64,000 bases of DNA, from IMG/VR virus record IMGVR_UViG_3300021961_000019; one strand, given 5' to 3'. Source of the DNA: a virus. Position 1 is the stretch's first letter, and each line of letters starts with the position of its first letter. The notes under the pieces were generated by a model. The model was given only the letters and a program-made list of their open reading frames with translations. It was not told the DNA's origin and searched no databases. The position numbers and the translations under genes are program-made. Below are positions 18,164 to 57,828 of the stretch, one piece after another.

Positions 18164-18369
18164 TATTCTTCTTCAGGATCTAGTGCGTGGAGTAGAGGAC
18201 TATTGGACAAAAGTTCTTGCTGTGCCATATACAATTTAATCGCGTTTTTGGCAACAACTCTCAGAGTTGCAAGATCCTCTATACTATCTATGCTTCTTGA
18301 CATTCTTTCATATTCAAAAAGATTATTAAGACTTGTCAATTTAATATCAAGCGGCTTCATCATCCACAA
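18163..18369 (-). CDS. Small hypothetical protein
   Basis: 68 aa helical ORF (FEYERMSRSID...KLYMAQQE) filling the gap before g13. Confidence 0.65.
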   Translation of the reverse strand: MWMMKPLDIKLTSLNNLFEYERMSRSIDSIEDLATLRVVAKNAIKLYMAQQELLSNSPLLHALDPEEE

Positions 18370-18577
18370 TTCTCCTCAACAACATTTTAATGTCAGATAG
18401 ATCATCTTTGATGGAGGAAATTTCATCCTCCATCTTTTTGATCTTTTGCGCTTCCTTATATTTTGTCTTATAAGTAGCGATATATTTATTGTATCCCTCA
18501 ACATCCGTATTTAATATTCCGTTGGAATATTCATCTCTGACTAGATGATCCCTATCCTTTACCTTAATATAGTCCAT
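18347..18577 (-). CDS. Small conserved hypothetical protein
   Basis: MDYIKVKDRDHLVRDEYSNGILNTD...EISSIKDDLSDIKMLL; probable start 18577. Confidence 0.75.
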   Translation of the reverse strand: MDYIKVKDRDHLVRDEYSNGILNTDVEGYNKYIATYKTKYKEAQKIKKMEDEISSIKDDLSDIKMLLRRIVDDEAA

Positions 18578-18581
18578 TTTA

Positions 18582-30900: not shown

Positions 30901-33900
30901 TGATGATGAGTATGCGAGTTTGTTGAGAACAGCGCCGGTATTTGCAACATAAATTACTGTTGTCCCAAGACCAACGGGATGATTGATCGTTGTTACCAAC
31001 TCATATTCAGAACTTGCTCTATATCCCCCACCAGTATTTCCGATGGATAGACTTGAAATTGTTCCAAGTCCGGAAACAGTCGCAGTTGCGCCAGCAGAAA
31101 TGCGAGGTTGATATCCAAGACCCTCTACTGTAGCAACAGAAACTATTACACCACCTCTTGGTAATTGTGTTGAATTTACATCATAACTTGTTGCTGTAGT
31201 ATCACCAGTAAAGGTAATTGTTGTAATTCCAGAAACTTCAGATAGAGAATAGTCAATATTCTGCGGACTCTGGAAAACGCTATTGATCAATACAATTGCA
31301 TTACTGGTAGAAATTCCAGTAACATCAACTCTATTGCTTTGGAGATTGAATTGGCTAGAGATTCCATTAAATTGCTGGTTAAGTGAATCAAATACAACGT
31401 TGGTCGCATAAGGTTCTTCAGTTCCACCAGGAATACCAGATCTCAAGAAAGATCTACCACTAAAGGAAGAGCGAACATCATATCCAAAATAATCTTGCTC
31501 ATCAGATCTTAATCCAGTAAGATCTACGTTTCCATATGGCGGTGTTGCAAAGTAAATGCTATTATTACTAATATTGTAATTACCATAAACCTTTCTAATA
31601 ATCGATGTTGCTGTGTGTAGACCAGCAGTTGAACCCAATTGTGACCTTCTAACAAGAAGATCGCTTGTGATTCCAAGATAACCAACTGCCCTAATCAGAA
31701 TGATTTCATTACCAATTTGAGCATAATCACCAGCGAAGAACGATGAAATTCCAGTAAGAGTAATAACTTCTGCTCCAAGGTTTGCTGGAACTTCAAGAGA
31801 TGATGTAATCGCTGTTGAAACTACTGGAGATTGAATCACATTATCAATTGTAATCAGACATCTACTATTCTGCTTTTTGGAAGTTAGATAGTGTTCAGTT
31901 CCAATTCCCGACGTGTTGGAAATTGTTAGATTTGTGAATGCGAGTGCATCTTGTGCGGATGCAGCAAACTGGAACGTGGAATTATCATTCTTAATAATAT
32001 AGACGGTTTCTGGAAGTTGATCAGTGGATCCAATGCCAGGAATTGTTGCTGTAACAATTCCAATTGGCAATCCACCTTCGGCATATGTGTATACAACCTC
32101 TTCACCACTTGTAAAGAAGTGATTTGGTAGGAATACTGACGAATTTGCAAGTATAGTGTCTATGGATGGATTGAATTCCTTTTGGAATAGTGGATAACCT
32201 TCATGATAAAGATCGAATGAAGTTTTTCGCGCAAGTTCAGTTCCTTGGAAAGTTCCATTTGCATCTGAAATTGATCCAACAGATCCAAGAACAATATCAT
32301 TCTCATCCACAACACTTCTTGATTCACCAAGAGCAAATTCAATTACTCTCACATCAACATTAATTCCAGATGCTGGAACAAATGTCAGTTCAGATACTGT
32401 ACTAATTCCAGCACTAATTGTTCCCAACGAACCACTTGTCTGTAATGTAGCAAACTCCAATATTTGCACATCAGTATCATCATCAGTCATCATGACTTCT
32501 GATATTTGATATTCATCATTTGTTGTGTCATGAACACAAACTAGGCAATACGCACCTTGATAGAAGTTATTGTATTGTGCAATCTTTTCTGGAACTGTTG
32601 TGGATGCAATTGATGTATAAGAAGTTTCGATGGTTGCTCCTGGGAAGAATGTCACTCCAACGCCAGTGTCCGCTGCAGAAATTGCAATAGTTTCAACATT
32701 AAAGATGAAATCTGTCGGTGTGGTTGCATCGGGAATGAACCACAGATCCAATCCACCAGCATTCAGATTCGACTGATAGGTTCCCAATCCACTATACGTT
32801 CCACCTGATGATGAGAGCGTGTTAAATTCTATTTGAGAAACATCAACATCATCATGAATAACGGACACCTCAGTATATTCAAATTCGGTAGACGCAGAGT
32901 TTCTAATCGAAATCATAAATTTCGCTGCTCTATAAGTTGATGCAATTCCAACAACTGTATTTGTTGTTCCTGCACCGGCACCAGCACTAAGTGTCGTTGT
33001 AGATGTGAATGCATTTACACAACCAAATCCAGAGAATCCTGTGGATGATACGGAATCATTCAGAGAGAATGTTAGTCCACTCATTTCATAATCATTAACT
33101 TCAGATTTGAATGGGTAGAATAGGAGTTCATTCTTTCCATCTAAGTATCTGTAATCAAAATCACCAAGATCTTCGAAACTCCAAACTTTTGCATATTGAT
33201 TGAGGAAACCTTGAGTGTTATATTGTAGAAGTGTGAGCAGCTGAACCTGTCGTTGAATCTCATAGTTTACTGATCTATCACCGACCCACATAATATACTT
33301 TTTAACCCTAACACCATCGAAGGAATCTGCAACTCCATAATTTTCAATACCAGTAGCAACTGTGAACTGGTCACTAATATCATCAATAACTAGAACTCTA
33401 TTTCCAATTGCTTCAATATAATCCTGAATAATCTTAGTCTTAAACAGAATTTGATCGGATTTTAAGGTATTGTCAATATAAAGAACGTTTTCCGTTGCGA
33501 GATCAAAATCGTAGACGGTATTTACATCAACGTAAGATGCAAGATCTGCTAGAATTGATACAGTTCCATTATCCTGTGAGGTTTGAATACCACTTACGAC
33601 ACCGGAATCCGTGGTTGATTCTACAATCAGATCACTAAATTTCTTAAATCCTGCAGTGTGGTTCAGATTGCTGACAGCATCATCCCACTTATCAATCTCA
33701 ACCTCAGATTTCAGAGAATATGAGAAATATTGGTAATAGTCACTATCATGAATTCTTTGGAGAGAATTGTTTAGGAATCCAGTATTACTGTTCCATCCCT
33801 TAGTTACAATAGAGGATGCTGCAATATTCAGATTTGAATCATATACAAATGCTTCGAGAACGTCAACTTCTAATCCAGTAACGTTAGATCTGATGGAATC

Positions 33901-36900
33901 TCCAACTTCAAAGTTCTTAGTTGACGCAATTTTTACTGTTTCATTAACAGTATCCCAATAAATTACTGTACCATCATTCTGATTTGCTGTGACGGATTCT
34001 CCCGGAGAGAATGTTCCCCTCTCAAGTTCCCAATTAAATACGGGGAATTCTTCCTCGCGAATTACCTTTCCATAAGACTCTAGAGCATTGTAGACACCGG
34101 GTGTTTCTGTTCCTGACAGATATTCTGTCAGGTTGTATGTAATCGTTGGAGAAAGACCACCAAGATCTGGATCTGTGGCGGTAATTGTAAACAGAGCATA
34201 GTTATAATTTGCTGAATTGTAACCAGTTCCTGACTGAGTGTTTACGACGTTGCCAAATCTGTCTACGGTAGTAATACCAACACTAGTATTCTCAATAAGA
34301 ATTTTATTACCAATTACAAATGGGAACTGTGAAGCAAAACTATATGTGGATGCGAGAGACACCACTACATCCTTACTCAGATCATTAAATTCGATTGTTC
34401 TGATTGAAGTGCCATTGATATTGTCAACTGGAATGATATGTGGCTCACCACGAAGTCTTGTTGTATTATTAATAATTGTTACTGTGGTTTGTCCAATTTC
34501 ATATTCCAATTCAACTTCATTCAGATATGTTCCGGTTACTGTATCCAGAACAATCAGATTTGGTGCAATTGTATAATTTCTACCAGCAGAGGAAATGCCT
34601 ATTGATTTGAAGGAATAAGCGGGATTAACTCTAAGAATATTTGGCAGAACTGTTGTTGGTCTTAATGTTGGATCTGAGGAATAATCATATCCAATATTTG
34701 AGAAGTTTACTTTCTTAAGTGTTCCAATATTTTTACCATCAACAATTAGAACAGCATTTTCACCATATGTGGTATTGACAGAGGAAACTTGTGGCAATCT
34801 CTTGTAATTTTTGCCAGAGGAATTTACCTTAACCTTGGCAATAGAACCAATTCCAGTTGTAGAATTTGTTGTATAGTAAAGAGCAGAACTTGTGGAAGTG
34901 TATGTATCAATCTCTGGAGTGTTTCTGATTTGGAAATCGAAGGACGATCCCAAAGTATCTTTAACAATATGCTTTCCACTATAAACACTTGACACCAGAG
35001 AAATTGCATTGTGACCAGCAACTTCATTGTCGATAGTTACGGGAACCGTTGTGAGTGTATTCTCTGTAAGGTTGACTGGGGAGAGATTGTAATATAGTGT
35101 GTTGGGAACATTATCATTTAGTGTGAGAGTTGCTTTTGCACCAGCATCTACACCAATAGCACCACTCTTTGAAACTTCAAATACTGGAGATTCTTGTGTT
35201 GAAACAAATGCATTAAATAATTGATTATCAATGTATAGGTCAAAATCGAAAGCACTCAAGTTGGATAGACCAAGCACATAAGATAGGGATGCATCAGACA
35301 GATCAAATTCAACAACACTATTTCTAGTGAGAGTGAGTGGTGGGTTGATTGGAGAAAGTGTTCCAATATCGGCAGAACTAATAACTACTGCATTATTGTT
35401 CAGCGCATCATAACGACTTGTTGCCAGTTTAATTTTGTTATTGTTGACTACAATTAGGTAATAAATTGTATCATCAACCAATCCACCTGGGGATGATGTT
35501 GAGTTGAAGATTACTTTCTGCGCAGTTACAAATCCATGATTCTGAATTTGAATTTCATTTGTGACTATGTTAACATCCAAAGCGACAAAATCAACAGGAT
35601 TTGCTACTAATCTATTGTGAGTTGCGTTATACTTGATTGTAACTGTGGTGGTAATTCCCGATACAACAGATAGATTGATTGCATCTCCATATTTCAGTCC
35701 ATGAGTTTCGCCTGTAGATACAGTAACTGTACGTTTTGTTGCACTTCCAATGAGTGGGTTTGCATAGTTCTTTGTGAAACTATGGTATACATCTGTGCCG
35801 AAACCGGTGAAATACATTAGACCGGCACTTGGAGTTAAACCAAGACCGACGAAAGTTCCTGTTGATCCTAAACCAACTCTTACTGTTGCAATACCAATGA
35901 TGTCATTTGTGATTTTTGCAGCATAAACTTTCGTATCACTTGCTAGAGTATATGTGCTGATGCCAGCATCTACGGACACAGTAATACCTTCACCAGCATT
36001 TGAGGTGTAAATCAATTCATCTCCTGTGCGGATATCGTGCCCAGGAATATAAATTGATCTGATGGGAATTGTTAATTGTGTGACACCAACACCTGGACTT
36101 GAGAAATATAGTGTTGAGTTGATCCCAACAGTCCCCAATCCAACGGATTCTGATGGATCAAAATAGTATTCTCTATCTAATTTTGTTGCATAAGATGTTG
36201 TGATGCCAAAAGTTACACCAAACTTTTGTGATTTTTCTGTGAGGGCAAATCCAACTGGGAGACTTGTTATTCCAGAAGTTCCATTCTGATCACGAAGAAC
36301 TCTAATTCTTTGCGCTACTGGATCCACATTCAGTATTTTGACTTGCTCGGGACCAAATTGATAGATATCGTTTTCTCTAACGGTTGGATATGTTAATTTA
36401 CCAACAACGTTTAGATAGGTCACTGGACCAGAGGTTGTTGATGCTGTGGAAACGGAAGATAGGAATAGGCGATTCTCTTCAAATCTAATATTATCAAATG
36501 TTGTTCTTTCGCCATCAATATCAATCTGAACCTCATCAAGATTTGTCAGATTGTGAATTTCACTAGCGAAACCAACGTAACGATACGGAACATTACCTGT
36601 TGATCTAATGAATTGGATGTTAGATATGGTTGTTGCTGCCAAACTTACTTGAGATACGGTCTTACCATATACAAGTTCAACCTCAGCATCTACTCCATTA
36701 CCACCACTTCCACTTTCATCAAATACAAGTTCATCCTTAACGGAATAATTTGATCCGCCATTTAGAACCTTAATTGCTTCAACACTTCCAGATCCAATAT
36801 ATTCCACCTTGCCGAAGGAAGACCTGAAGATTTCTGGCGGTGGTAAGAATTCGTAGATACTATTCTCACTTAGAAGATTGAATGGGGTTGAATTTCTCAG

Positions 36901-39900
36901 CAGACGATTTGATGAGAAATCATATAAATCTTGATTGTTTGTTGTGAGGAAATTAAATGCAATTGGTTTGGAATGATAAGTATCTCCAATTACATATGGG
37001 AATTGTGGTTCTCTATAAAACTTAAATGGACCAGAGTTTGCAAGAGATCCAACGGTGCAGAAATATGCATACGTTCCGTTTGGATATTCTGGGGTAATGC
37101 AGAATCTTCCATTATGCTCATCAAGATCTCCACTTGCATCATAGACATAATCCTGAACAAAGAAACCAGATGGATATTGTGGGGGTCTATTTGAGTTTGC
37201 TTGAATTGTATAACTGGACAACATTCTCTTAATATCCCCAGGAGTTTGGGGATCTGAGTAACCATATGGACCATAAATTGGATTTCCATCGTATGCCCAT
37301 CCCAAAATTGGAGAGTGGGAAGTTGGAGTTCTTTCAAATCCATTATCTTCAAATGTCAGATCTGGAACATATGATAATTGGCCAGATATGCGCAATTCAC
37401 TCAATACAGTTCTTCTTAATAGTCTTGGCGCATATGCGTGGCAATACTGCAGACCAATTTCAGCATTCAATCCCTGGTCAATAATTCCATCATCATCAGT
37501 AATATTATTCTTTTCGATCAATCTTCTAACAATATTGATAGTCCATGGAGTGATCTGTGCCTGGAATTTCGCACCTTCTCCAGAAGTTGTGACTACAATA
37601 AAAGTATCATTAATACTATATCCGCCACCATTTTCGTTAATGATGACATCAACTATTTGTCCATTCTGAATAATAGGTGTAAGTAAAGCACCAGAACCAG
37701 AACCGGAAACAACGGTTAGTAGTGGATTTGTATTATAATTTTTACCTTTGTTTGCAATAATAACATCAACAACTCTTCCATTAGAAATGATTGGAGTAAT
37801 TTGTGCATTTTCTCCAGATACAATATTGAATTCTGGTTGGCGATTGTGATTTATAATATCAGCTGATCCATATCCAGATCCATTATTTGTTAGATGGACG
37901 CCATAAACTTGCCCTGAGAAGATTGGAATCAATTTGGCGTTAAAATCTTGTCCAGATTCTGTAGATACACCAATTCTACCTCTCACCGTTAGGGTAATTG
38001 GTTCATAATTAAAGTCATGATTTCCTGACCCAATTGAAGTTAGGTCAACATATTGCTTTGAAATATAGTAGAAATCTTTCGCAGTATTTCCAACACCAAT
38101 TTCAGATAGTCTGATATTATCCTCATCAACCACAGTTACATAGTAACTGGAACCAGATACCAATCCCCCGATTGGAGTTGTGGATGGATAGTATGAAATT
38201 TTTTCACCACTATTATAATTGTGTGCCTTGATGTTGATAATATTTCCATTAATATCAATATTGCTGGGAGCACATCTGGTTAATCTATTTCTATAACCAG
38301 ATCCCGGTTCTTCAATTGTTACTGAACCAATTTTAGTCTTCTTTATAGTGGATTTGAATGTCTGTACTCCATATCCGTAAGAACCCAGGGAAATTGTATT
38401 AATTCCTGTGGATGCATCTGATAATGACTTGTGGAGGCGAATTTTCTTTCCAACATGACCAGATGGGAATGAAACAAAATATGATGCATTCGTAGTCAAT
38501 CCACTAATGATTTGTTGATTTTGTGGATTGTAAATTACCTGTTCATAATTTCTAAATCCATGATATGTTGAAAAACCAATAGTATTTTCAGTAAGATCAA
38601 CTCCAGATGTTGAACCTGCATCGAAATTAACAACATGATTAAAATCAACTAAGTTTGCAACAGCTCTAGCATTTCCATTAATCTCTGATCCACCACCACT
38701 AATTTCAATAATTGGTTGCTCAACGAAGTCAAATCCAGGATTTTCAACATCGATTCTTACCAATTTTCCAGAAATTGATAGATTTCCTGTTGCAGCAATA
38801 CCTGTTGAATCACTAATGATGAGTGATGGCGGATTGATAACATCATATCCATCGCCACCAGCAGTTACAACAACATCCTCAATTGGACCATAATATACAA
38901 AATTTCTAGATTTATAGTTCAACAACTCAACGCCGTTGATGAACATACCAATTTGACCTGGCAGAGTCTTATTCTCTACACTATCAGATTCGGGTGCTGT
39001 GAGTTTTCTAACTAGTCTTTGAGATTCAATTGGTTGCCTTGATAGATTTCTGAAAGAAAATGCTGTCAATTCTACTGTACTTTCATATCCTGGATTGATT
39101 GTTCCAGAGAATGAAACATAAAATGAATCATCACCAGTTAAGTCAGCATTAAAAATATTGTCCCTCGACTTAGCAAGACGAATAGATGTGGATGAAATTA
39201 CCTTTACGAAGTAAATTCCTTCGGGAGCGACCGCATTATCTTCATCAAATGGTCTGTAAATTACGGAATCGCCAGTATAAAATGAGTGGGGTGTTGGGAA
39301 AACAAGATCTTTTCCGTTAAATGTGCCCGAAAATGAAACAGAACGATCCTCAAGATCTAATTGTTGGTCAAGATATGATGGAATTGAACTGGATGTTACA
39401 TATAATTCATTCTTATTGATTTCATCACAGTAAATATTTTGAACATTTGTTACATACTTGAGAATATCTGGATATTTTTCTGGCTGCCTTACATAAGTTT
39501 TGAGTAGATTATTTTGAATTGATTTGATTAAATTCTTATTTGGGATCAGACTATTCTGTGTTACTTGAATGGTCTTTGGTCCAACAACGGAGGAGACGTA
39601 TCCCCCAGTAAATGTATCACCATTTGTGGCAATAAATGTTACTCTATTACCAATCACGAAAGAATGTTCATCAATAGTAGTAACTGTATAGATGAATGAT
39701 GTTCCGGATGGATCTGAAATGCTGGAGATATTATAAACTAATGGAATATTGAAGATCCAATCGTTCGCTTTTTTGGAAGTTAGATCTTCACCAAGACTCT
39801 TAATATAAATTCTATCATTAGGAGTTAATTCTTCTGGTTGATCCCCAGTAACAACAAGATCCGAGATTACCCCATTTACTCTAACTTCAATCCTTTCTCT

Positions 39901-41091
39901 CTCTACACCACCAAAACCATATACATAAATTTCCTTTCCACCGACAGCATGAAGCTTCACTTCAGTTGCAGTTGGAATTATGTCATCAATTCCAGTACAA
40001 CCAAAGAATTGTGTGGTGGATTTTGATGTATAAGTGATGTATTGAGTTGCCCCATTTTCAAGATCAACTCTCAATTGTCCAGATTCTGGGAACCCAATTG
40101 TACTGTCAACCTCAATTGTTTCTGCTGCGGCAGCAATATCAATAATATTCTTGGTCTTGGGATGAATTGAAAATGTACCAGCAACCGTACCGCTGGATAC
40201 GTTAATATCTCTGTTATAATCTGAGTCTAAACTGATAATGTAGAGTTCTTTATTTTCACGTAAAATTCTTTCTACATGAGTTACTGCACCACTTGCTTGG
40301 AAGATGAAGTCATTTTCATCTTGAAAAATTGTTGAATTCAGCAGTTTTTCAGGATCTCCAGTAATAGCTTCTACTACAAGATCCTTAGTAATGCGATATT
40401 CTGCATCGGATGGTTCAATTAGAAAGTCCCTAGGGCGGATCAGTTCAACTTTCTTCCCATACAACGCATTAAAAAGAATCTTGAAAGATACTTCAGTACC
40501 TTTTGATGAATAAAAATCCTTAATATGTGATAGGAAAATTTCCTCATTCAGATTATCTGTCAGTTCCCTCTTTCTAAATCCGGGAGCAATTAGGGATTTG
40601 ATCTTGAATAAAAACTGTTGAAGGAATAAGATGCTAAGATTTTTAACTTCAGATCCGGAGATGTGTGTAGACGCAACGGTTTCTGAGAATACCAATTCGT
40701 CGGGAACGTTTGACTCTAGGGATGAAACTCCACTAAATCCGCGAGTGCATCCATAAAAATAGTTACTTTCCTTTCCATCATATAGGATGATCTCGTCATC
40801 AATCTGAATTAGACCATGGCGAAGAGGGAATCCATATGTGGAGTCAACATAGATCGTATCATCAGATGCACTCACACTTGAAGTGGTTGTTGTGCCCTCA
40901 GTTAGATTTGTTACAGCATCAAGCGATACATGTCTATCAATATTATGGAGGATGTCTAGTGGTCCCCCAGCATATTCATTAGAGATGTAGTATTGAGATA
41001 GAAATTCCTCAGCAACTGGGAATTCTTGTTTGATGAAGTCAGGAAGTTGACTTTCAAGGATAGAACTTATCTTAACTCTTGTATCGTTCAT
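27988..41091 (-). CDS. g7: Baseplate wedge initiator gp7-like giant structural protein
   Basis: 4367 aa between g6 and g8. QLPDFI..EFP..FL.QYY N-terminus, IKDFYSSKGT, YHYH-associated HSPILGWAYDGNPIYGPYG, RIHDSDYYQYFSYSLKS. Confidence 0.88.
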   Translation of the reverse strand: MNDTRVKISSILESQLPDFIKQEFPVAEEFLSQYYISNEYAGGPLDILHNIDRHVSLDAVTNLTEGTTTTSSVSASDDTIYVDSTYGFPLRHGLIQIDDEIILYDGKESNYFYGCTRGFSGVSSLESNVPDELVFSETVASTHISGSEVKNLSILFLQQFLFKIKSLIAPGFRKRELTDNLNEEIFLSHIKDFYSSKGTEVSFKILFNALYGKKVELIRPRDFLIEPSDAEYRITKDLVVEAITGDPEKLLNSTIFQDENDFIFQASGAVTHVERILRENKELYIISLDSDYNRDINVSSGTVAGTFSIHPKTKNIIDIAAAAETIEVDSTIGFPESGQLRVDLENGATQYITYTSKSTTQFFGCTGIDDIIPTATEVKLHAVGGKEIYVYGFGGVERERIEVRVNGVISDLVVTGDQPEELTPNDRIYIKSLGEDLTSKKANDWIFNIPLVYNISSISDPSGTSFIYTVTTIDEHSFVIGNRVTFIATNGDTFTGGYVSSVVGPKTIQVTQNSLIPNKNLIKSIQNNLLKTYVRQPEKYPDILKYVTNVQNIYCDEINKNELYVTSSSIPSYLDQQLDLEDRSVSFSGTFNGKDLVFPTPHSFYTGDSVIYRPFDEDNAVAPEGIYFVKVISSTSIRLAKSRDNIFNADLTGDDSFYVSFSGTINPGYESTVELTAFSFRNLSRQPIESQRLVRKLTAPESDSVENKTLPGQIGMFINGVELLNYKSRNFVYYGPIEDVVVTAGGDGYDVINPPSLIISDSTGIAATGNLSISGKLVRIDVENPGFDFVEQPIIEISGGGSEINGNARAVANLVDFNHVVNFDAGSTSGVDLTENTIGFSTYHGFRNYEQVIYNPQNQQIISGLTTNASYFVSFPSGHVGKKIRLHKSLSDASTGINTISLGSYGYGVQTFKSTIKKTKIGSVTIEEPGSGYRNRLTRCAPSNIDINGNIINIKAHNYNSGEKISYYPSTTPIGGLVSGSSYYVTVVDEDNIRLSEIGVGNTAKDFYYISKQYVDLTSIGSGNHDFNYEPITLTVRGRIGVSTESGQDFNAKLIPIFSGQVYGVHLTNNGSGYGSADIINHNRQPEFNIVSGENAQITPIISNGRVVDVIIANKGKNYNTNPLLTVVSGSGSGALLTPIIQNGQIVDVIINENGGGYSINDTFIVVTTSGEGAKFQAQITPWTINIVRRLIEKNNITDDDGIIDQGLNAEIGLQYCHAYAPRLLRRTVLSELRISGQLSYVPDLTFEDNGFERTPTSHSPILGWAYDGNPIYGPYGYSDPQTPGDIKRMLSSYTIQANSNRPPQYPSGFFVQDYVYDASGDLDEHNGRFCITPEYPNGTYAYFCTVGSLANSGPFKFYREPQFPYVIGDTYHSKPIAFNFLTTNNQDLYDFSSNRLLRNSTPFNLLSENSIYEFLPPPEIFRSSFGKVEYIGSGSVEAIKVLNGGSNYSVKDELVFDESGSGGNGVDAEVELVYGKTVSQVSLAATTISNIQFIRSTGNVPYRYVGFASEIHNLTNLDEVQIDIDGERTTFDNIRFEENRLFLSSVSTASTTSGPVTYLNVVGKLTYPTVRENDIYQFGPEQVKILNVDPVAQRIRVLRDQNGTSGITSLPVGFALTEKSQKFGVTFGITTSYATKLDREYYFDPSESVGLGTVGINSTLYFSSPGVGVTQLTIPIRSIYIPGHDIRTGDELIYTSNAGEGITVSVDAGISTYTLASDTKVYAAKITNDIIGIATVRVGLGSTGTFVGLGLTPSAGLMYFTGFGTDVYHSFTKNYANPLIGSATKRTVTVSTGETHGLKYGDAINLSVVSGITTTVTIKYNATHNRLVANPVDFVALDVNIVTNEIQIQNHGFVTAQKVIFNSTSSPGGLVDDTIYYLIVVNNNKIKLATSRYDALNNNAVVISSADIGTLSPINPPLTLTRNSVVEFDLSDASLSYVLGLSNLSAFDFDLYIDNQLFNAFVSTQESPVFEVSKSGAIGVDAGAKATLTLNDNVPNTLYYNLSPVNLTENTLTTVPVTIDNEVAGHNAISLVSSVYSGKHIVKDTLGSSFDFQIRNTPEIDTYTSTSSALYYTTNSTTGIGSIAKVKVNSSGKNYKRLPQVSSVNTTYGENAVLIVDGKNIGTLKKVNFSNIGYDYSSDPTLRPTTVLPNILRVNPAYSFKSIGISSAGRNYTIAPNLIVLDTVTGTYLNEVELEYEIGQTTVTIINNTTRLRGEPHIIPVDNINGTSIRTIEFNDLSKDVVVSLASTYSFASQFPFVIGNKILIENTSVGITTVDRFGNVVNTQSGTGYNSANYNYALFTITATDPDLGGLSPTITYNLTEYLSGTETPGVYNALESYGKVIREEEFPVFNWELERGTFSPGESVTANQNDGTVIYWDTVNETVKIASTKNFEVGDSIRSNVTGLEVDVLEAFVYDSNLNIAASSIVTKGWNSNTGFLNNSLQRIHDSDYYQYFSYSLKSEVEIDKWDDAVSNLNHTAGFKKFSDLIVESTTDSGVVSGIQTSQDNGTVSILADLASYVDVNTVYDFDLATENVLYIDNTLKSDQILFKTKIIQDYIEAIGNRVLVIDDISDQFTVATGIENYGVADSFDGVRVKKYIMWVGDRSVNYEIQRQVQLLTLLQYNTQGFLNQYAKVWSFEDLGDFDYRYLDGKNELLFYPFKSEVNDYEMSGLTFSLNDSVSSTGFSGFGCVNAFTSTTTLSAGAGAGTTNTVVGIASTYRAAKFMISIRNSASTEFEYTEVSVIHDDVDVSQIEFNTLSSSGGTYSGLGTYQSNLNAGGLDLWFIPDATTPTDFIFNVETIAISAADTGVGVTFFPGATIETSYTSIASTTVPEKIAQYNNFYQGAYCLVCVHDTTNDEYQISEVMMTDDDTDVQILEFATLQTSGSLGTISAGISTVSELTFVPASGINVDVRVIEFALGESRSVVDENDIVLGSVGSISDANGTFQGTELARKTSFDLYHEGYPLFQKEFNPSIDTILANSSVFLPNHFFTSGEEVVYTYAEGGLPIGIVTATIPGIGSTDQLPETVYIIKNDNSTFQFAASAQDALAFTNLTISNTSGIGTEHYLTSKKQNSRCLITIDNVIQSPVVSTAITSSLEVPANLGAEVITLTGISSFFAGDYAQIGNEIILIRAVGYLGITSDLLVRRSQLGSTAGLHTATSIIRKVYGNYNISNNSIYFATPPYGNVDLTGLRSDEQDYFGYDVRSSFSGRSFLRSGIPGGTEEPYATNVVFDSLNQQFNGISSQFNLQSNRVDVTGISTSNAIVLINSVFQSPQNIDYSLSEVSGITTITFTGDTTATSYDVNSTQLPRGGVIVSVATVEGLGYQPRISAGATATVSGLGTISSLSIGNTGGGYRASSEYELVTTINHPVGLGTTVIYVANTGAVLNKLAYSSSNTISVGSALTDVSIVSVGDTFVTVGSGDVPAIAIESGSTAHINLNNPTAGIVNIGVAQTNIGNYEFIGFTTIVAGRISTDYVITNPGSGYTNTNEPLVIFDAPLHYSNIPLQYSASSPTTGIGTEATIDIVVGQGSSVISFEIKNFGYAYGNEEVLTVPIGGLTGIPTDTSYSFSEFQITVEAIASDEFAGWSIGDLQVLDSIDSLFNNVDVNFPLSINGERTSIRSRTGSDVREDALLLVFLNNVLQVPGDAYTFDGGSTIRFSTAPRFGDNCSIIFYRGTSEIDTIDVEVLDSIKVGDKVILNDGNIIYQEETRLVTDIVSTDAVTTNIYFGAGINPDETYERPLNWTRQTVDLILNGEEVGKDRELYEANIFPTTRIIKDVSIASTEIFVDNVKTFFDHDKEYPAVLQENQHDVLIHEHKYVVAAAGTCTISSGIGSVTNITITNGGVGYDNDQSPEISVGISAGIGTEDRATATVGVTTSGTIASTFITNAGIGYSNSPIESLVVLDSGTGWPNTGLAYTFSNVRLRNKFSDGSNALANVTILNGSLLDVEIVRGGYNYHEDDQLVVKVVNYEGADLILSSALTLEVSGVLAPPIIFEEPSINKELMSVSYEGDFGIISGIGTTSYTGVTTGLVFDFVIPENSFLRDTYVNGVVGVATTGISGIQTGYYFVLHESNIGDTIISLESDDSPLGIGTTFINNIFKAEAVSIAQTEAVGLGLTWVAKVTTKVSNYDDFLSGIAHSTYYGQYSWGRLFNLDRVLKKNIGAYRGENLLTYSEFESGWTNTGGVTLDYTSQLAPFSQTYGAEITTTAADTGLLNSTAVLASGTDYTYSVYIKPDLGTLAIYFGSTTGTTASVSVNFDAVIPTITNKTGTTFNETLVPQSDGWYRASFTFNAGASTAHNFVVYNENSNNCIFAVWGVQVESGVDLTPYSKVTHTAVVRNTTTTDENTYPVLRRYNNLRFKGYE

Positions 41092-41094
41092 TTT

Positions 41095-43005
41095 TTATAG
41101 TCTAACGAGAGCGCCGTTTGCGTAACTTGAAGTAACTGTATATGTTGAACCAGAAATATCTGATCCTGATGAAATAGGATCTGCCAGCATATTGACAGAA
41201 GTGTTATTAATATCTAGCTGCAAATAAAGATCCTGTAATCCGATCACATCGTTCGATTTTGGTGTGACCGAAATCTGAACAATTGAATCTGCGGAATCGA
41301 ATTTCGCAGTCTCAATAATATTTAATGGATATAAAAGAATCTCTCCTTTTACATAATCAACCTTGCCAGCATTCTTTCTAACAATTGTTGGAGTGGTGCC
41401 GGTTGCATCAAGTTTAAAGAATACAATTTTTCCGGTCTCAAGATCCGAATTTGGAATATCAGTTAGGTAAACAAACTCAGATACTCCACTAATTTTGAAT
41501 CCCGATGACTTAATGTTGTATCCAGTATTATTTTTGATGTGGAACGCATTACCATAACAAATTTCATAATCAGCATATTTTCCAAGGGCAATACGAAGAT
41601 CTCTCCTCATGGATACTGTTGTGATGTTGGATGTTACAGAGGAGTCACTTTCATCAACGAGTTTGAGGAATTTACTATATTTAAATCTTGCGCCATAACG
41701 GTTCAGTTCAGTTGAATCTGCATATCTTTCAACGTTCTTAATTACCTTGCTGCGAACAGATGCTGCACTCAAACTTGTATTGGTATTGTAGTATGCTGTG
41801 CAATCAATCTCAACATAAAGATACTTGAGATCTAGAATTTCTGGCACAATTCCCGCAACAGAATATCTGCGAAGAGTTCTCTTTAAATTATCTTTAATTG
41901 AGGATGGTATATATGTACCATTTAGTGGTTTAATCGTAATGAACACCTTTCCAAACTGTGGGGGATTCAGATCTTCACCACCAAATACAGAGATGGATTC
42001 TGTTTCTGGGAAGATTGTGGGAATGATTGATTCATAGTCAGTTGCTGTAACTGCTCTATTATGTGCCTCATAAATTTTTGGCGCATATTTGCGAATTGAC
42101 TCAACAGATTCAATTGGTGTGCCGAATCTGGAGACAGCATCTGCAGTCAACGCAGAAATTCCACCGGAGATTACTGTATCGTTATTATCAAGAAGTCTTC
42201 CATTAAATGTAAATCCTGCAACACCATTTCCATCTTCGCCATTAGACAGGTGATATGAGATTTCAATTCTACTTCCATCAATTAATTTATTACCAAAGAT
42301 GCCATCACCAAAGATGATTTCATATCGTTCATCTGCAATTTCTTGTAGGAAGAAGACTCTAGATGTTGAAGTTACATCAAGTAGATTGTTTGAAAGTTGA
42401 TATCTTACTCCAGTATTGGAACCGGGATCAAATACACGAACTCTGATTAGGGAAGTATCAACTCCAGCATTATCAAGAAGGAATCTTTGGTTGGGATCAT
42501 TATAGTTTACTGTATATTCTGCTGTTACATATGAACCCTCATACACATAAACATTATTGAAGGATGCCACTCCAGAAACGACTGGAACGGTCACTTCATC
42601 CTGAATGGCAAAGGTATAACTCTGACTACCGAAACGGGCGTTAGAGGTGCATACAAGACCCTTCTGGAGGGTGATTGTGGTTGGGTTGTTTGAGTATCCG
42701 GTCGTATCAACAGTAAAGGATATTGCTGCCCTCGCTGCCCTTCTGGATCGAGGAAGATATCCAATTTGCTTTGCCAGAGAAACGACATTTTCCCTTAGCG
42801 TAGCACTATCGATGAATACCTCATTACTCAACATGTTGGCATTATATGCCGAGATATAGGTATTAAACGCTAAAACGTCTATAAGAGTTGCTAGATTGGA
42901 TCCTTCAAAATCGAAATCGGTAAAATCTGAGTTTGACCTCAGATAATCGACAATTGATTTTTTTATTTGATCAAAATCCAGGTTTGTGAAGTTAACTAGT
43001 GCCAT
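41095..43005 (-). CDS. g6: Baseplate wedge subunit gp6
   Basis: NLDFDQIK, FTDFDFEGSNL..LIDVLAFNT, FIDSATLRENVVSLAK.IGY.PRS, NRAVTATDYE. Confidence 0.96.
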   Translation of the reverse strand: MALVNFTNLDFDQIKKSIVDYLRSNSDFTDFDFEGSNLATLIDVLAFNTYISAYNANMLSNEVFIDSATLRENVVSLAKQIGYLPRSRRAARAAISFTVDTTGYSNNPTTITLQKGLVCTSNARFGSQSYTFAIQDEVTVPVVSGVASFNNVYVYEGSYVTAEYTVNYNDPNQRFLLDNAGVDTSLIRVRVFDPGSNTGVRYQLSNNLLDVTSTSRVFFLQEIADERYEIIFGDGIFGNKLIDGSRIEISYHLSNGEDGNGVAGFTFNGRLLDNNDTVISGGISALTADAVSRFGTPIESVESIRKYAPKIYEAHNRAVTATDYESIIPTIFPETESISVFGGEDLNPPQFGKVFITIKPLNGTYIPSSIKDNLKRTLRRYSVAGIVPEILDLKYLYVEIDCTAYYNTNTSLSAASVRSKVIKNVERYADSTELNRYGARFKYSKFLKLVDESDSSVTSNITTVSMRRDLRIALGKYADYEICYGNAFHIKNNTGYNIKSSGFKISGVSEFVYLTDIPNSDLETGKIVFFKLDATGTTPTIVRKNAGKVDYVKGEILLYPLNIIETAKFDSADSIVQISVTPKSNDVIGLQDLYLQLDINNTSVNMLADPISSGSDISGSTYTVTSSYANGALVRL

Positions 43006-44767: not shown

Positions 44768-44796
44768 ATTTTATCGTTCTATTTAGGTTTTGTCAA
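44768..44796 (-). promoter_or_regulatory. Sigma70-type promoter with a nested late box
   Basis: Minus strand TTGACA(44796-44791)-17 nt-TAAAAT(44773-44768), with TAAATA in the spacer (44785-44780). Confidence 0.75.
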
Positions 44797-45199
44797 CCCT
44801 CAAAAATCTCCCCCCTTTCCCTCTTGGAATATCTGTATTTCGGAAGTTTTCCGCGTGATCACACCATCTCAGATTTGTGACCTCGTTGCAGAGTTTGTCT
44901 CTGTTGATGTGGTCCACCTCTGAGAGATTGTGGGGGTTCTCTAGGAGGGTCTCCGCAATCAGTCTATGAACATAGTATCTGATCTGCTTGATGAACCTTC
45001 CAGACTCATCTCTGAGGGATATATTGACTGCCGCATACAGTCGCTTATTCCCTCCTGCGCCCCCTCTAAGGTGCTGTGCCACCTCAACCTTTTCTGTGAG
45101 AATTTTTTCCCCGGATTTTTTTTGCGCATCTCTAAACACCTTTCCGTCTTCTGTGACGTAGTATCTGGGAAATTTTGTGGGGAAAAATATTTTTTGCAT
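44783..45199 (-). CDS. HNH homing endonuclease (free-standing)
   Basis: YYVTEDGKVF, YVHRLIAETLLENPHNLSEVDHINRDKLCNEVTNLRW (HNH_3 pattern). Confidence 0.9.
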   Translation of the reverse strand: MQKIFFPTKFPRYYVTEDGKVFRDAQKKSGEKILTEKVEVAQHLRGGAGGNKRLYAAVNISLRDESGRFIKQIRYYVHRLIAETLLENPHNLSEVDHINRDKLCNEVTNLRWCDHAENFRNTDIPRGKGGRFLRVDKT

Positions 45200-50679: not shown

Positions 50680-50841
50680 CTACCAGAGATCATCTGTGTT
50701 GAGTTCTTTTACATCTACCTCTAGATGTTCACCACCTTCAAGATTTAAAATAGTATCCCAATCTAAATCTTGAGGATCAAAATCATCCATAACTTCTAGA
50801 TCTAGAGTAATTCTGTACCTATGCATCTGTGCGTATACCAT
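50680..50841 (-). CDS. Small acidic protein (53 aa)
   Basis: Hand translation MVYAQMHRYRITLDLEVMDDFDPQDLDWDTILNLEGGEHLEVDVKELNTDDLW. Confidence 0.7.
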   Translation of the reverse strand: MVYAQMHRYRITLDLEVMDDFDPQDLDWDTILNLEGGEHLEVDVKELNTDDLW

Positions 50842-50924
50842 AAGAACCATCTGAACTCTATGTGTATTATACCGCGCTTAGATTAATAAGGCAAGCGTTG
50901 AATGTATATATGCAGCATGTGTAA

Positions 50925-51411
50925 ATCTAGTGTACTTATGTGAAGTATGTACATGAATCTAGATGTGTATATGCAGCATACATGAATCTAGATGTATATG
51001 TGTATGATGTGAATCTAGTTGCATATGTGCAGCAGATCTAGTGCAATCTAGTTGTGTATATGATGTGCTGTAATCTAGTTGCAGAAATCTAGTTGCATAT
51101 GTGCAGCAGATCTAGTTGTGTTTCAGCGGACCCGTGGCATTTCTGCAGCGTCCCTGGGGCAAATTTTCCGCGTCCCGTGGTTGACAAACTGCGCGTCCGG
51201 TGCTAAGCTGTCCAAGATCACAAGACCTGGGGGCATTTAAATGATCATAAGTGTATTAAAGATCTAGTTACATGATGTATAGATGATTTAATACATGATG
51301 ATGATTAATCTAGTTGTGTATATGATGATTAATCTAGTACATGAATCTAGTTGTGTATATGATGATGAATCTAGTTACATCTAGTTGTATAATACATGAT
51401 GATTAATCTAG
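50925..51411 (+). repeat. Array of 16 co-oriented ATCTAG-core repeats in two blocks
   Basis: ATCTAG at 50925, 50957, 50986, 51013, 51036, 51046, 51073, 51087, 51110 and at 51262, 51308, 51332, 51345, 51369, 51379, 51406; extended unit AATCTAGTTGTGTATATGATG. Confidence 0.92.
51181..51209 (+). promoter_or_regulatory. Sigma70-type promoter between the repeat blocks
   Basis: TTGACA-17 nt-TAAGCT with an extended -10 TG at 51201-51202. Confidence 0.78.
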
Positions 51412-51615
51412 TTGTGTATACATTGTTTAAAGAGATAATAAGATCAATATAAGTATCGTACCCATCCATATACCCATTAAAGCAACAGTTAATTGAAACA
51501 TAATACTATCCATATCTAATGGTTTATACTCCTATTATAGCACACTTAAACCTTTTATTTATTCCTCTAAAACATATATATTTTTACGTTTAACACAAAC
51601 ATCATATTATTCATT

Positions 51616-52422
51616 ATGACAAATACGGGCACAATATACCTCATTCTCAATCGTGTCAATGGACATAAGTATGTGGGTCAAACTAGGCAACAATTGAACA
51701 CCAGATGGAAGGCACATCTGACTGAAGCACGTTCTTATCCTACTCGTCCTCTCTACTATGCAATTAACAAATATGGTGCAGATAAGTTTACCATTAAGGT
51801 ATTAGAAGAATGTTCGGTAGATAAGTTAAATGAAAGAGAAGTGTATTGGATTTCTAAACTCAATACCTTTAAAAGTGGTGTCGATTATAATGCAACTGCA
51901 GGTGGTGATTTCTTTGAACATACAGAGGCTACTAAACAAAAGATCTCTGAAGGAATGAGAAAGGTAGAGCGTTCGGATGAATGGATACAGAACATGTCTA
52001 CCTCATTAAAGGAAAAGGCAAAGAAAGAACCTTGGGGGTTTTTGAATGCAAAGAATAGAGCAGATGGTAAACATACACGTCGTAGAGTTAAAGGTGTATG
52101 TGTCACCACTGGAAAAGAGAGAATCTTTGAAAGTATGACTGAAGCAGCAAGACAGGTGAATGGAAAGAGTGGTAATATCTGTGCTGCGATCAAGAACAAT
52201 TGGATGGCATATGGTTACAGATGGGAAAAGATTGATACACGTCCCAGTAAGTTACAATGCTATGGTGTGAATAAGCATACTGGTGAACAAACAGTCGTCT
52301 TTCCCAGTATTAAAGCTGCATGTCGTTATATGGGTGGAGATCATGATTCTGGTATTCGCAAAGCATTAAAAGCACCAGGAGTGTCCACATGGTATGGATA
52401 CTACTGGTTCTTTGTGGCATAG
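51616..52422 (+). CDS. GIY-YIG (Seg-like) homing endonuclease with C-terminal NUMOD1-like repeats
   Basis: GTIYLILNRVNGHKYVGQT...R...H...E.YWI...N; two C-terminal modules (IFESMTEAARQV, VFPSIKAACRYM); opposite strand to its neighbours. Confidence 0.9.
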   Translation: MTNTGTIYLILNRVNGHKYVGQTRQQLNTRWKAHLTEARSYPTRPLYYAINKYGADKFTIKVLEECSVDKLNEREVYWISKLNTFKSGVDYNATAGGDFFEHTEATKQKISEGMRKVERSDEWIQNMSTSLKEKAKKEPWGFLNAKNRADGKHTRRRVKGVCVTTGKERIFESMTEAARQVNGKSGNICAAIKNNWMAYGYRWEKIDTRPSKLQCYGVNKHTGEQTVVFPSIKAACRYMGGDHDSGIRKALKAPGVSTWYGYYWFFVA

Positions 52423-56327: not shown

Positions 56328-57314
56328 CTACACACCCATAGCGTCCAGAAGGGGTGAATGTTCTACCTCTGCCACATCAATCTGCAGGTTTTCTATTGAC
56401 TTCTCAAACAACTTCTTGCCTTCTTTGTTAAGATCGAATAAAACGTAATTTCTGCCGGTCAGAAGGGCACTCCTGCCCACCGTCCCAGACCCAGCGCAAG
56501 GATCCAGAACAATAGAATCCTCATCGCTAAACATCCTCAGAATACGATTCAGTAGAGCAACAGGTTTCTGTGTGGCATAATCCAGTTTCTCAACACCCTG
56601 TATCTGCTTAATGTCTGACCACACATCTTTGACTGGAATTCCATCCATCTCATCAAGATACTTCTTGACCCTAGGAATACCAGTATTGGATGAGTATTCA
56701 AGGCGATTGTCATCATGAAGCATCTGCATTCTCTCCTTTGATACATGCCACTGGAGATCATGTCCATTCCATTTATATCTCAGGTTGGGTCTGGATACAA
56801 CGTTTGGTTGACGATTTACCAGGGCAGATGTGTGATACTTCTTCTTGCGATATGGACAAATCTTTGCCTTTCGAACTGTCTCATCATCATACTCTTTATG
56901 CTCTGGATGATAGATGGACTCGGCACCCTTTTGATAGACTATGATCGTATCATGATTGCGCTGCAGTTGTTTCTTTGACTTGTGATTGCCGCCAGAGACC
57001 CATACAATCTCATTCTTAAATCTCTTCTCACCAAACACATCATCAAGAACAATACGAATATGATGTGAGATCTTTGGTTCAACATGCACAACAATATTAC
57101 CACGATCTGTGAGAATACGATGACACTCCTGTAGAAGTGGGCGCATCAACAAATCGCGGTAATCTGCACTTGATTTGAACCTATCATCAAAATGATAGAA
57201 GTCCCTACCGGTACAATATGGTGGATCAATGTAAACAAGATCTACAGTATTCGCTTCAACTTTCTGCAGCAAATCTCTACTGTCACCGATGTTGTACTCG
57301 TTTAAGATCTTCAT
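56328..57314 (-). CDS. DNA amino-methyltransferase (N6-A/N4-C, beta-class motif order)
   Basis: Motif IV VYIDPPY near the N-terminus; YATQKPVALL.RI and motif I VLDPCAGSGT near the C-terminus; probable start MKILNE at 57314. Confidence 0.93.
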   Translation of the reverse strand: MKILNEYNIGDSRDLLQKVEANTVDLVYIDPPYCTGRDFYHFDDRFKSSADYRDLLMRPLLQECHRILTDRGNIVVHVEPKISHHIRIVLDDVFGEKRFKNEIVWVSGGNHKSKKQLQRNHDTIIVYQKGAESIYHPEHKEYDDETVRKAKICPYRKKKYHTSALVNRQPNVVSRPNLRYKWNGHDLQWHVSKERMQMLHDDNRLEYSSNTGIPRVKKYLDEMDGIPVKDVWSDIKQIQGVEKLDYATQKPVALLNRILRMFSDEDSIVLDPCAGSGTVGRSALLTGRNYVLFDLNKEGKKLFEKSIENLQIDVAEVEHSPLLDAMGV

Positions 57315-57828
57315 AGATAAGAACCTCTTTCGCACGTCCTGTATACTTCTTACGAACTGCTGCTGGCACAGAACCAACACAGTATCCTGGCATATTCTTG
57401 TCTTCTAACTCATAACTGGGAATAGCAAGATACTCCCAATCAGAGATGTCCTCATAACCATTTGGTATGATGAACAGTATAACATCAAATGAATTGATTG
57501 CATACCTCACCTGACCATTCTTTGCTCCCTGAGTAGCATTCTTACCCGTGGTCCTTCGGGTCTGTTCCATGTGAAGGGAATTGCCTCCACGATACTTCAC
57601 TTGAATGCGAAGATTGTTGGTAGATAGACGATCATACTTCTCCTGCTGACCATCAGCATCATTAGGAGATGGTTTTGTTTGAATTCCACACTCCTCACGC
57701 AACCACTGGGGTGCGATAATCCTTTCCGTTGGAAATGCAAGAAACTTACCAATCTCTCTGGTGTCACCTTCGGTGATGAGTTCCTGAAACCCAAGGGCAA
57801 CAATTTCTGAAAGTGATGATACTGACAT
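57283..57828 (-). CDS. Putative PD-(D/E)xK-family endonuclease (possible Type II REase)
   Basis: YD(x8)IQVK motif, Y....FDVILF; overlaps the MTase start by 32 nt. Confidence 0.6.
   Translation of the reverse strand: MSVSSLSEIVALGFQELITEGDTREIGKFLAFPTERIIAPQWLREECGIQTKPSPNDADGQQEKYDRLSTNNLRIQVKYRGGNSLHMEQTRRTTGKNATQGAKNGQVRYAINSFDVILFIIPNGYEDISDWEYLAIPSYELEDKNMPGYCVGSVPAAVRKKYTGRAKEVLIYEDLKRVQHR

Follow-up and report, generated by a model that had tools for sequence, protein, structure and literature searches.

What is the role of the longest stretch without open reading frames (ORFs; cut-off at least 50 or at least 60 amino acids, aa) in a 64,000-nucleotide (nt) window of viral DNA, and could it be the place where replication of a marine cyanophage begins? 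The window, meaning the whole stretch of DNA analysed here, belongs to the IMG/VR record IMGVR_UViG_3300021961_000019, a contig of 154,286 base pairs (bp) that is 79% complete and derives from a T4-like cyanophage distant from sequenced isolates. A large fraction of the ocean's chief primary producers is killed by cyanomyoviruses, and to our knowledge none of these viruses has had its replication origin mapped. The ORF-free block carries two arrays of the hexamer ATCTAG and, between them, a GC-rich core with a rightward promoter (P). Judged by sequence comparison, the block is the window's copy of a single-copy cassette found in many cyanomyoviruses. This cassette is the best candidate for the start of DNA replication in T4-like marine cyanophages. 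Our reading, quite possible yet tentative, is that of a transcription-activated replication origin in which ATCTAG arrays take the place of DnaA boxes.

Recounting on the + strand confirmed 16 co-oriented ATCTAG copies, nine to the left and seven to the right of the core (Table 1), as stated by an initial annotation made from the sequence of the window, which had also recognised the block as the longest ORF-free stretch. The copies start at positions 50925, 50957, 50986, 51013, 51036, 51046, 51073, 51087 and 51110 in the left block and at 51262, 51308, 51332, 51345, 51369, 51379 and 51406 in the right block. Their spacings, measured as 32, 29, 27, 23, 10, 27, 14 and 23 nt on the left and 46, 24, 13, 24, 10 and 27 nt on the right, are irregular in the range of 10-46 nt described before. 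All repeats have the core gaATCTAGTTGt.Tat in common, and their spacers diverge. The + strand of the entire record holds 35 ATCTAG hexamers, 16 of which are packed into less than 500 bp at this locus. Furthermore, CTAG is scarce genome-wide (251 observed vs ~548 expected), in line with the rarity assumed initially. The longer motif ATCTAGTTG occurs nine times in the whole record, always at the ATCTAG locus (9/9), and AATCTAGTTG, with seven forward and no reverse copies in the record, is likewise confined to it, which fits a dedicated cis element. Exact 31-nt duplicates lying 74 bp apart within the locus indicate a recent duplication in the array.

Relatives of the locus were reached by a 21-mer of the extended repeat, by the neighbouring protein and by a sequence model of promoter and leader. 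The neighbouring protein, a member of phrog_12516, has homologues in 123 viral stretches, of which 80 were kept; single loci are designated by L numbers. BLAST of the block against isolate phages yielded no match, and the exact 17-mer of the core none in IMG/VR. The extended-repeat 21-mer is present in four other viral contigs with identical layout. Of 83 loci chosen by the small neighbouring gene, 44 possess the rightward promoter together with its leader. They follow a shared plan consisting of TTGACA-17-TAnAnT with an extended -10 TG, a discriminator rich in GC, then AGATCAC and, after some ten variable bases, ACATTTA. In the common form of the cassette a leftward TTGACA promoter and the rightward one are arranged back to back at a distance of about 40 bp, and in most relatives P is followed by 200-250 nt without ORF. 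This part comprises at least one ...ACATTTAATTGAGAATAA unit, a variable part, a highly conserved AT-rich block (CATTTAAAAAACCTTTTTTAATAT...) and finally a GC hairpin, the terminator of the converging operon. The right array of the window fills the variable part, which is the slot for DnaA boxes or other repeats in the relatives.

The promoter-leader model had a single match each in the window's own record (E 6e-12) and in Syn9 (E 3e-5); the cassette is thus single-copy in both. In Syn9 it is found ~1.6 kb upstream from the gene for the baseplate wedge, in the same general place as here. BLAST located the cassette in Bellamy, S-SM2, S-SCSM1, S-8S55, SynMITS9220M01 and others, and those of S-PM2 and P-TIM68 were recognised by inspection via their DnaA-box clusters. 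The exact promoter-leader pattern had no match in Syn9, S-PM2, P-HM2, P-SSM2 and S-RSM4, of which the model found Syn9 only; no clear cassette was seen in P-HM2, S-RSM4 and P-SSM2. Equivalents of the block are common and syntenic, and the case that the initial annotation had set against its own proposal, a block with no equivalent in relatives, therefore does not apply.

The core indeed contains the promoter motif TTGACA-17-TAAGCT (at 51181 and 51204) described in the initial annotation, and P is directed against the dominant gene strand, as described there. A simple promoter scan did not list P because TAAGCT matches the consensus at only three of six positions. Nevertheless, P aligns with near-consensus TTGACA-17-TAnAnT promoters in 38 relatives. 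Within the leader, compared in 39 sequences, AGAT and C of the AGATCAC element are invariant and the last A occurs in at least 90% of the rows, and in the ACATTTA element one T is invariant and both ACAT and the final A are present in at least 90% of the rows. In addition to the GTCC-N-GKG boxes of the GC-rich stretch (Table 1), a fourth box at 51195 lies within the spacer of P; the boxes are ~21-23 bp apart, and their pattern is conserved in L011. As the small minus-strand gene on the left has its own leftward promoter, the left array is placed between divergent promoters. In many relatives a possible inverted repeat, recognised by eye, brackets the -10 hexamer and start of P (TGTGAT...ATCACA; GCGAG...CTCGC). 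The arms extend over 11 bp in L009 (7830-7867; GAGGTCTTGTG / CACAAGACCTC), and a matching change is seen in L013 (TGTTAT...ATAACA); compensatory change is only partial overall.

What fills the variable slot differs between lineages. Clusters of DnaA boxes were detected in the variable part of Syn9, S-PM2, S-SM2, P-TIM68, S-SCSM1 and several metagenomic contigs. Two to four boxes are present in 8 of the 44 distinct cassettes, often 21 bp apart when on the same strand, and nearly all are perfect TTTTCCACA or TTATCCACA. The former is the cyanobacterial DnaA box (DoriC 5.0, PMC3531139). The density of TTWTNCACA boxes amounts to 1.37/kb in cassettes vs 0.14/kb in all loci and 0.10/kb in the own genome. 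Three of the ten DnaA boxes of the Syn9 genome lie within 45 bp beside the sole model match, and in P-TIM68 boxes flank the promoter on both sides. S-PM2 has three perfect TTTTCCACA boxes within 34 bp (19,231-19,264). On the opposite strand its locus presents, in succession, ~14 AATCT[TC]A[AG] repeats, TTGACA-17-TAAGCC, a leader related to that of the other cassettes, a block rich in AT and finally the boxes. Its -10 hexamer TAAGCC is of the same unusual kind as that of the window, and the S-PM2 locus combines both kinds of site.

The ATCTAG form was searched with pairs of AATCTAGTTG sites 3-33 nt apart, which yielded 51 viral stretches; 21 of the 47 new ones contain the cassette promoter. Arrays of ATCTAG(TTG) stand beside P in at least 16 distinct cassettes, with 146 copies upstream and 19 downstream of P, co-oriented with it. 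In 12 of these 16 the array is located about -50 to -400 from the promoter, which corresponds in position and orientation to the left array of the window. Copies on both sides of P were found in the window and L137, and L150 has them downstream only. No DnaA box lies closer than 500 bp to the promoter in any of the 12 large-array cassettes. Other repeats were also noted: CCGCGCAGG occurs ~7 times upstream of P in S-8S55 (L098, 2250-2400), CGAAACTTATCTAATCACGAATGA five times upstream of P in L062, L066 and L070, with CACGAATGA-type units in or beside the cassette, and L036 and L070 contain tandem 31-45-nt units.

The exact duplicates within the window, 103-bp duplicates in L011, a copy number that varies from 6 to 19 between contigs and the recurrence of endonuclease genes beside the cassette would also suit a neutral expansion of a repeat prone to slippage or recombination, possibly via homing endonuclease repair, in a promoter region that tolerates insertions. 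This explanation is very unlikely, since the core of 9-12 bp is kept and the spacers diverge even in lineages whose phrog_12516 neighbour is only 43-62% identical, the orientation relative to P is fixed, and the motif includes CTAG, which is avoided elsewhere in the genome.

A second explanation takes the arrays as dedicated transcription control, that is as operator or enhancer sites through which a factor of phage or host would switch two divergent early promoters (here also the endonuclease gene), with no role in replication. We regard it as the main rival and as possible, albeit doubtful; an RNA function, a centromere- or packaging-like site and neutral expansion are less likely. Most arrays indeed lie at -50 to -400 between back-to-back promoters, and genes follow P in the window, L011, L008 and S-8S55. 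In L139 (~2270-2830, shown reversed) and L141 (2028-2220), which also have four DnaA boxes within 45 bp beside their promoters, ATCTAG abuts the -35 hexamer (ATCTAGTTGACA; ATCTAG/TTGACA) and the extended -10 hexamer (ATCTAGTTGgTAnnnT; ATCTAG/TTGgTAnnnT), and this arrangement hints at an operator-like site. DnaA also acts as a transcription factor, and DnaA boxes are located downstream of lambda pR. Nevertheless, the 8 to 19 sites exceed the need of a promoter by far, the site is missing from all other promoters of the genome, P drives no gene in most relatives, and no regulator gene tracks the arrays.

Downstream of P the DNA is exceptionally easy to melt. The AT-rich tract that was said to follow the repeats comprises 51356-51455 (z +3.4) and 51525-51624 (z +3.2), which rank first and third for low duplex stability among the 100-bp windows of the 64 kb, whereas the GC core belongs to the most stable (z -3.9). 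The GC skew across the repeats is +0.24 to +0.44. A conserved AT-rich block is present in 15 relatives. Similarity to L011 within the tract begins at ~51546, and at least the last 70 nt travel with the endonuclease gene there. According to the sequence comparison, 51546-51615 may represent either the conserved AT-rich element of the cassette (AAACCTTTTATTTATT vs AAAACCTTTTTTAATAT in relatives) or the 5' flank of the endonuclease gene.

A structured non-coding RNA was considered for the locus and rejected. A tRNA (transfer RNA) search gave no match at the locus, Rfam none at gathering score (only chance-level microRNA matches, E 0.4-0.9), and RNAalifold on 15 relatives revealed neither a conserved fold nor covariation apart from the terminal hairpin. 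A would-be transcript of 400 nt is less structured than 100 of 100 shuffled sequences (z +2.45). P could instead produce an abundant, unstructured early non-coding RNA, serving as sponge or decoy for a protein or RNA or as leader of the endonuclease mRNA. The conserved 5' leader, the tandem units downstream of P in many relatives, the seven repeats that would be transcribed in the window and the unusual lack of structure, as in single-strand binding platforms, speak for such an RNA. It is nonetheless unlikely, as 146 of 165 array copies lie upstream of P, outside its transcript, DnaA boxes act as DNA sites and not as RNA, and the lack of an Rfam match and of conserved structure applies here as well. 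The repeat-rich non-coding RNA that had been offered initially is therefore not upheld. Taken together with the low duplex stability and the skew, these results favour a DNA-level element that is transcribed over a structured RNA gene.

For the origin reading we infer the following course of events, in which transcription starting at P, binding of a protein to ATCTAG and the role in replication are all predicted from the anatomy of the locus. Soon after infection host RNA polymerase would start at the sigma70-type promoter P and head rightward. Its transcript, free of any ORF, would extend into the part of the region that melts most readily, where the C-poor and unstructured RNA would stay hybridised or hold the duplex open. 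The phage's own replisome could then be loaded at the opened duplex, as at T4 oriF and oriG; a DnaB-family helicase is encoded by the phage. The slot of the cassette would accept multiple protein-binding sites, host DnaA boxes in many relatives and, in the lineage of the window, copies of the 9-12-bp site (G)AATCTAGTTG(T) in arrays. A sequence-specific protein would bind these sites and help to open, time or license the locus. The reading is based on a promoter directed against gene flow, an ORF-free transcript, the AT-rich block, the single copy, the local divergence of transcription at which the locus sits, and the exchangeable sites.

This anatomy matches that of T4 oriF and oriG and, in part, of oriE. 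The T4 origins oriF (uvsY) and oriG (gene 34) consist of a promoter and an A+T-rich unwinding element and are primed by an R-loop (Kreuzer and Brister 2010, PMC3016281), and oriE, oriF and oriG all sit at switches of transcription direction (PMC3016281). Here, too, a predicted promoter would direct a transcript into the candidate origin, an A+T-rich element lies downstream of it, and the site is at a transcription-direction switch of a T4-type phage with its own replisome. In contrast to the host sigma70-type promoter of the cassette, those of oriF and oriG are MotA-dependent middle promoters, and these two origins have neither repeat arrays nor DnaA boxes; R-loop and replication start have been demonstrated in T4, whereas the locus described here is known from its sequence. 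The origin oriE contains direct repeats of 12 nt at even spacing, with similar ones at syntenic places in relatives (PMC3016281). It resembles the cassette in having a cluster of short direct repeats at a syntenic place (at least 16 ATCTAG cassettes; AATCTYAR in S-PM2) and differs from it by the core of 9-12 nt, the irregular spacing and the much higher copy number found here, where no repE-like genes were seen.

Compared with a plasmid iteron origin, even spacing is seen only in the GC-core boxes at 21-23 bp, and no initiator gene lies beside the repeats, the neighbours being the 56-aa protein, the endonuclease and PTOX (plastoquinol terminal oxidase); an initiator gene, if present, would have to be distant. 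The box cluster of a DnaA-dependent oriC-type origin is present in relatives and absent from the window. With the DnaA-box form of the cassette the window shares promoter, leader, small gene, AT-rich block, orientation and single copy, and it differs by the 16 ATCTAG sites that flank P and by the endonuclease gene at the far end. The lambda origin combines transcriptional activation driven by pR with host DnaA, and P1 oriR and pSC101 combine DnaA boxes with iterons; these origins have regular 17-22-bp iterons with the gene for their initiator (O, RepA) next to them. Like the cassette, they have arrays of initiator sites, candidate ones here, beside an AT-rich region. They depend on transcription that passes through the origin or close to it and employ host DnaA together with a binder specific to the element, to which the two repeat types of S-PM2 would correspond. 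Neither regular iterons nor an adjacent initiator gene were seen here.

The two blocks of direct repeats flanking a core with -35 and -10 hexamers also recall parC of plasmid R1, where two sets of five repeats surround the par promoter and are bound by ParR, and the pac site of phage P1, whose cut site is flanked by four plus three hexamers. A site of centromere-like or packaging type, with a small protein on the repeats at both sides of the core, would agree with the arrangement in the window and L137 and with the uneven distribution of contig ends near the small gene, 27 of which lie on its cassette side vs 10 on the opposite one (within 1.2 kb, 80 loci). It is highly improbable, however, as the repeats are one-sided in 12 of 16 cassettes and neither a ParR-, ParM-, ParA- or TubZ-like gene nor one for terminase borders the locus. 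For the contig breaks the repeats offer a simpler explanation. In T4-type phages packaging is by headful, with no fixed site, and we know of no need for partition in a lytic phage.

Several results weigh against a replication origin. The ATCTAG spacings lack helical phasing, unlike those of classical iterons, and no TTWTNCACA DnaA box is present in 50851-51620. In the flanks of the loci collected, no gene for an initiator-like or DNA-binding protein is specific to the loci that bear arrays; the sole gene tracking these is phrog_12516, which is also present where arrays are absent. Cumulative GC skew, proposed initially as a check, runs monotonically in both the own record and Syn9, follows the gene strand only and gives no origin signal. 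No gene for gp59 was detected in the record, which is 79% complete; five Syn9 proteins used as tblastn queries had no match in it either, the record being distant from Syn9 or incomplete. The -10 hexamer of P is weak here. Because the endonuclease gene follows P in the window and L011, and other genes in L008 and S-8S55, P may simply be an early promoter. Finally, DnaA boxes can also serve as transcription controls or as a DnaA sink. The iteron plus R-loop origin of the initial annotation thus gained comparative support as an origin, from the DnaA boxes in the cassette of relatives, the single copy and the melting DNA, whereas the iteron label fits poorly given the irregular spacing and the lack of an initiator gene beside the array.

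A broader form of the origin reading, rather speculative and in our estimation doubtful, sees one fixed origin chassis of early host-type promoter, leader and unwinding block with exchangeable sites for recruiting an initiator. These would be either DnaA boxes or ATCTAG arrays for a binder that is probably phage-encoded, and the lineage of the window would have become free from the host initiator. The two forms could in this respect be used as a natural experiment on phage dependence on the host initiator. As the cassette is conserved, single-copy and recognisable, it offers a precise place to test in Syn9, S-PM2, S-SM2 and P-TIM68. For Syn9 a single theta origin has been predicted, according to the mention in PMC2984593. 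Our literature search found no description of the cassette or of DnaA boxes in cyanomyoviruses. The ATCTAG variant that lacks DnaA boxes, its spread, its constant orientation to P and the S-PM2 locus with both kinds of site are new findings.

Table 1 Coordinates of the cassette, its elements and its neighbours in the window and in isolate phages
Feature	Position	Strand	Remarks
56-aa acidic protein gene, phrog_12516	50680-50850	-	PHROG E 7e-18; conserved left neighbour of cassette
Leftward sigma70-like promoter TTGCCT-17-TATAAT	50866-50894	-	Promoter scan, 10/12 matches; for small gene
Left ATCTAG array	50925-51115	+	9 co-oriented copies; core gaATCTAGTTGt.Tat; between two divergent promoters
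GC-rich stretch 5' of -35 hexamer	51121-51180	+	GTCC-N-GKG boxes at 51129, 51150, 51172
Rightward promoter P (predicted)	51181-51209	+	TTGACA 51181-51186, 17 nt, TAAGCT 51204-51209, extended -10 TG
Conserved leader AGATCAC-N12-CATTTAAAT	51215-51242	+	Start of presumed transcript
AT-rich, G-over-C-skewed tract	51250-51620		Least stable duplex in window; candidate unwinding element
Right ATCTAG array	51262-51411	+	7 co-oriented copies; in variable part of cassette
AT-rich block common to window and L011	51546-51615	+	Alignment; just upstream of endonuclease gene
Free-standing GIY-YIG/NUMOD1 homing endonuclease gene	51616-52422	+	Pfam GIY-YIG E 1e-10, NUMOD1 E 1e-7; PHROG homing endonuclease
Cassette in Syn9	52.5-52.7 kb
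Cassette in S-PM2	19.1-19.6 kb
Cassette in S-SM2	58.0-58.2 kb
Cassette in P-TIM68	57.7-58.3 kb

The product of the small gene on the left is very acidic, contains the motif RYRITLELDVMDDF...W and is highly conserved whatever the repeat type. Its AlphaFold model has a predicted local distance difference test (pLDDT) score of 81 and is almost without regular secondary structure; judged by this model, folding of the protein may require oligomerisation or a partner. It was considered as binder of the array and rejected on account of its acidity, its conservation regardless of repeat type and the near absence of secondary structure in the model. Leftwards of this gene follow numerous small genes and, beyond them, the gp6 baseplate wedge gene. 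On the right side the homing endonuclease gene is followed by the PTOX gene. The cassette of L011 is followed by the same homing endonuclease gene as that of the window, and a GIY-YIG-like reading frame lies downstream of that of L017; the far end of the cassette therefore seems to be a landing place for homing endonuclease genes. A gene for an HNH endonuclease is located 6 kb left of the cassette (44783-45199, - strand).

The cassette also leaves traces in databases, where it breaks metagenomic assemblies and draws spurious ORF and tRNA annotation. Contig ends within 2 kb of the small gene are found 40 times on the cassette side and 13 times on the other side among the 80 loci (L012-L091), and the contigs of L009, L015, L016, L019, L035 and L133 end inside repeat units just after the promoter. 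The excess probably reflects assembly breaks at variable repeats. ORFs of 34-74 aa are annotated across the non-coding cassette in S-SM2 (L097, 2373-2887) and Syn9 (L106, 2281-2797) and are probably spurious. In S-PM2, RefSeq features for tRNA-Asn and tRNA-Leu (NC_006820.1, 19177-19333; L115) lie on the non-coding cassette with its three DnaA boxes. Since this stretch is non-coding and ARAGORN detected no tRNA in S-PM2 18300-20300, the coordinates of these features look misplaced.

The window also encodes an N6/N4 DNA methyltransferase (56328-57380, - strand). Five of the 16 ATCTAG copies (51036, 51046, 51110, 51262 and 51332) fall within AGATCTAG or ATCTAGT(A/G)C, so that the array might be touched by methylation of GATC- or CTAG-containing sites. 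Directly beside the gp6-like baseplate wedge gene (41095-43005), a single ORF of 4367 aa (27988-41091, - strand) presumably encodes a giant structural or fibre protein.

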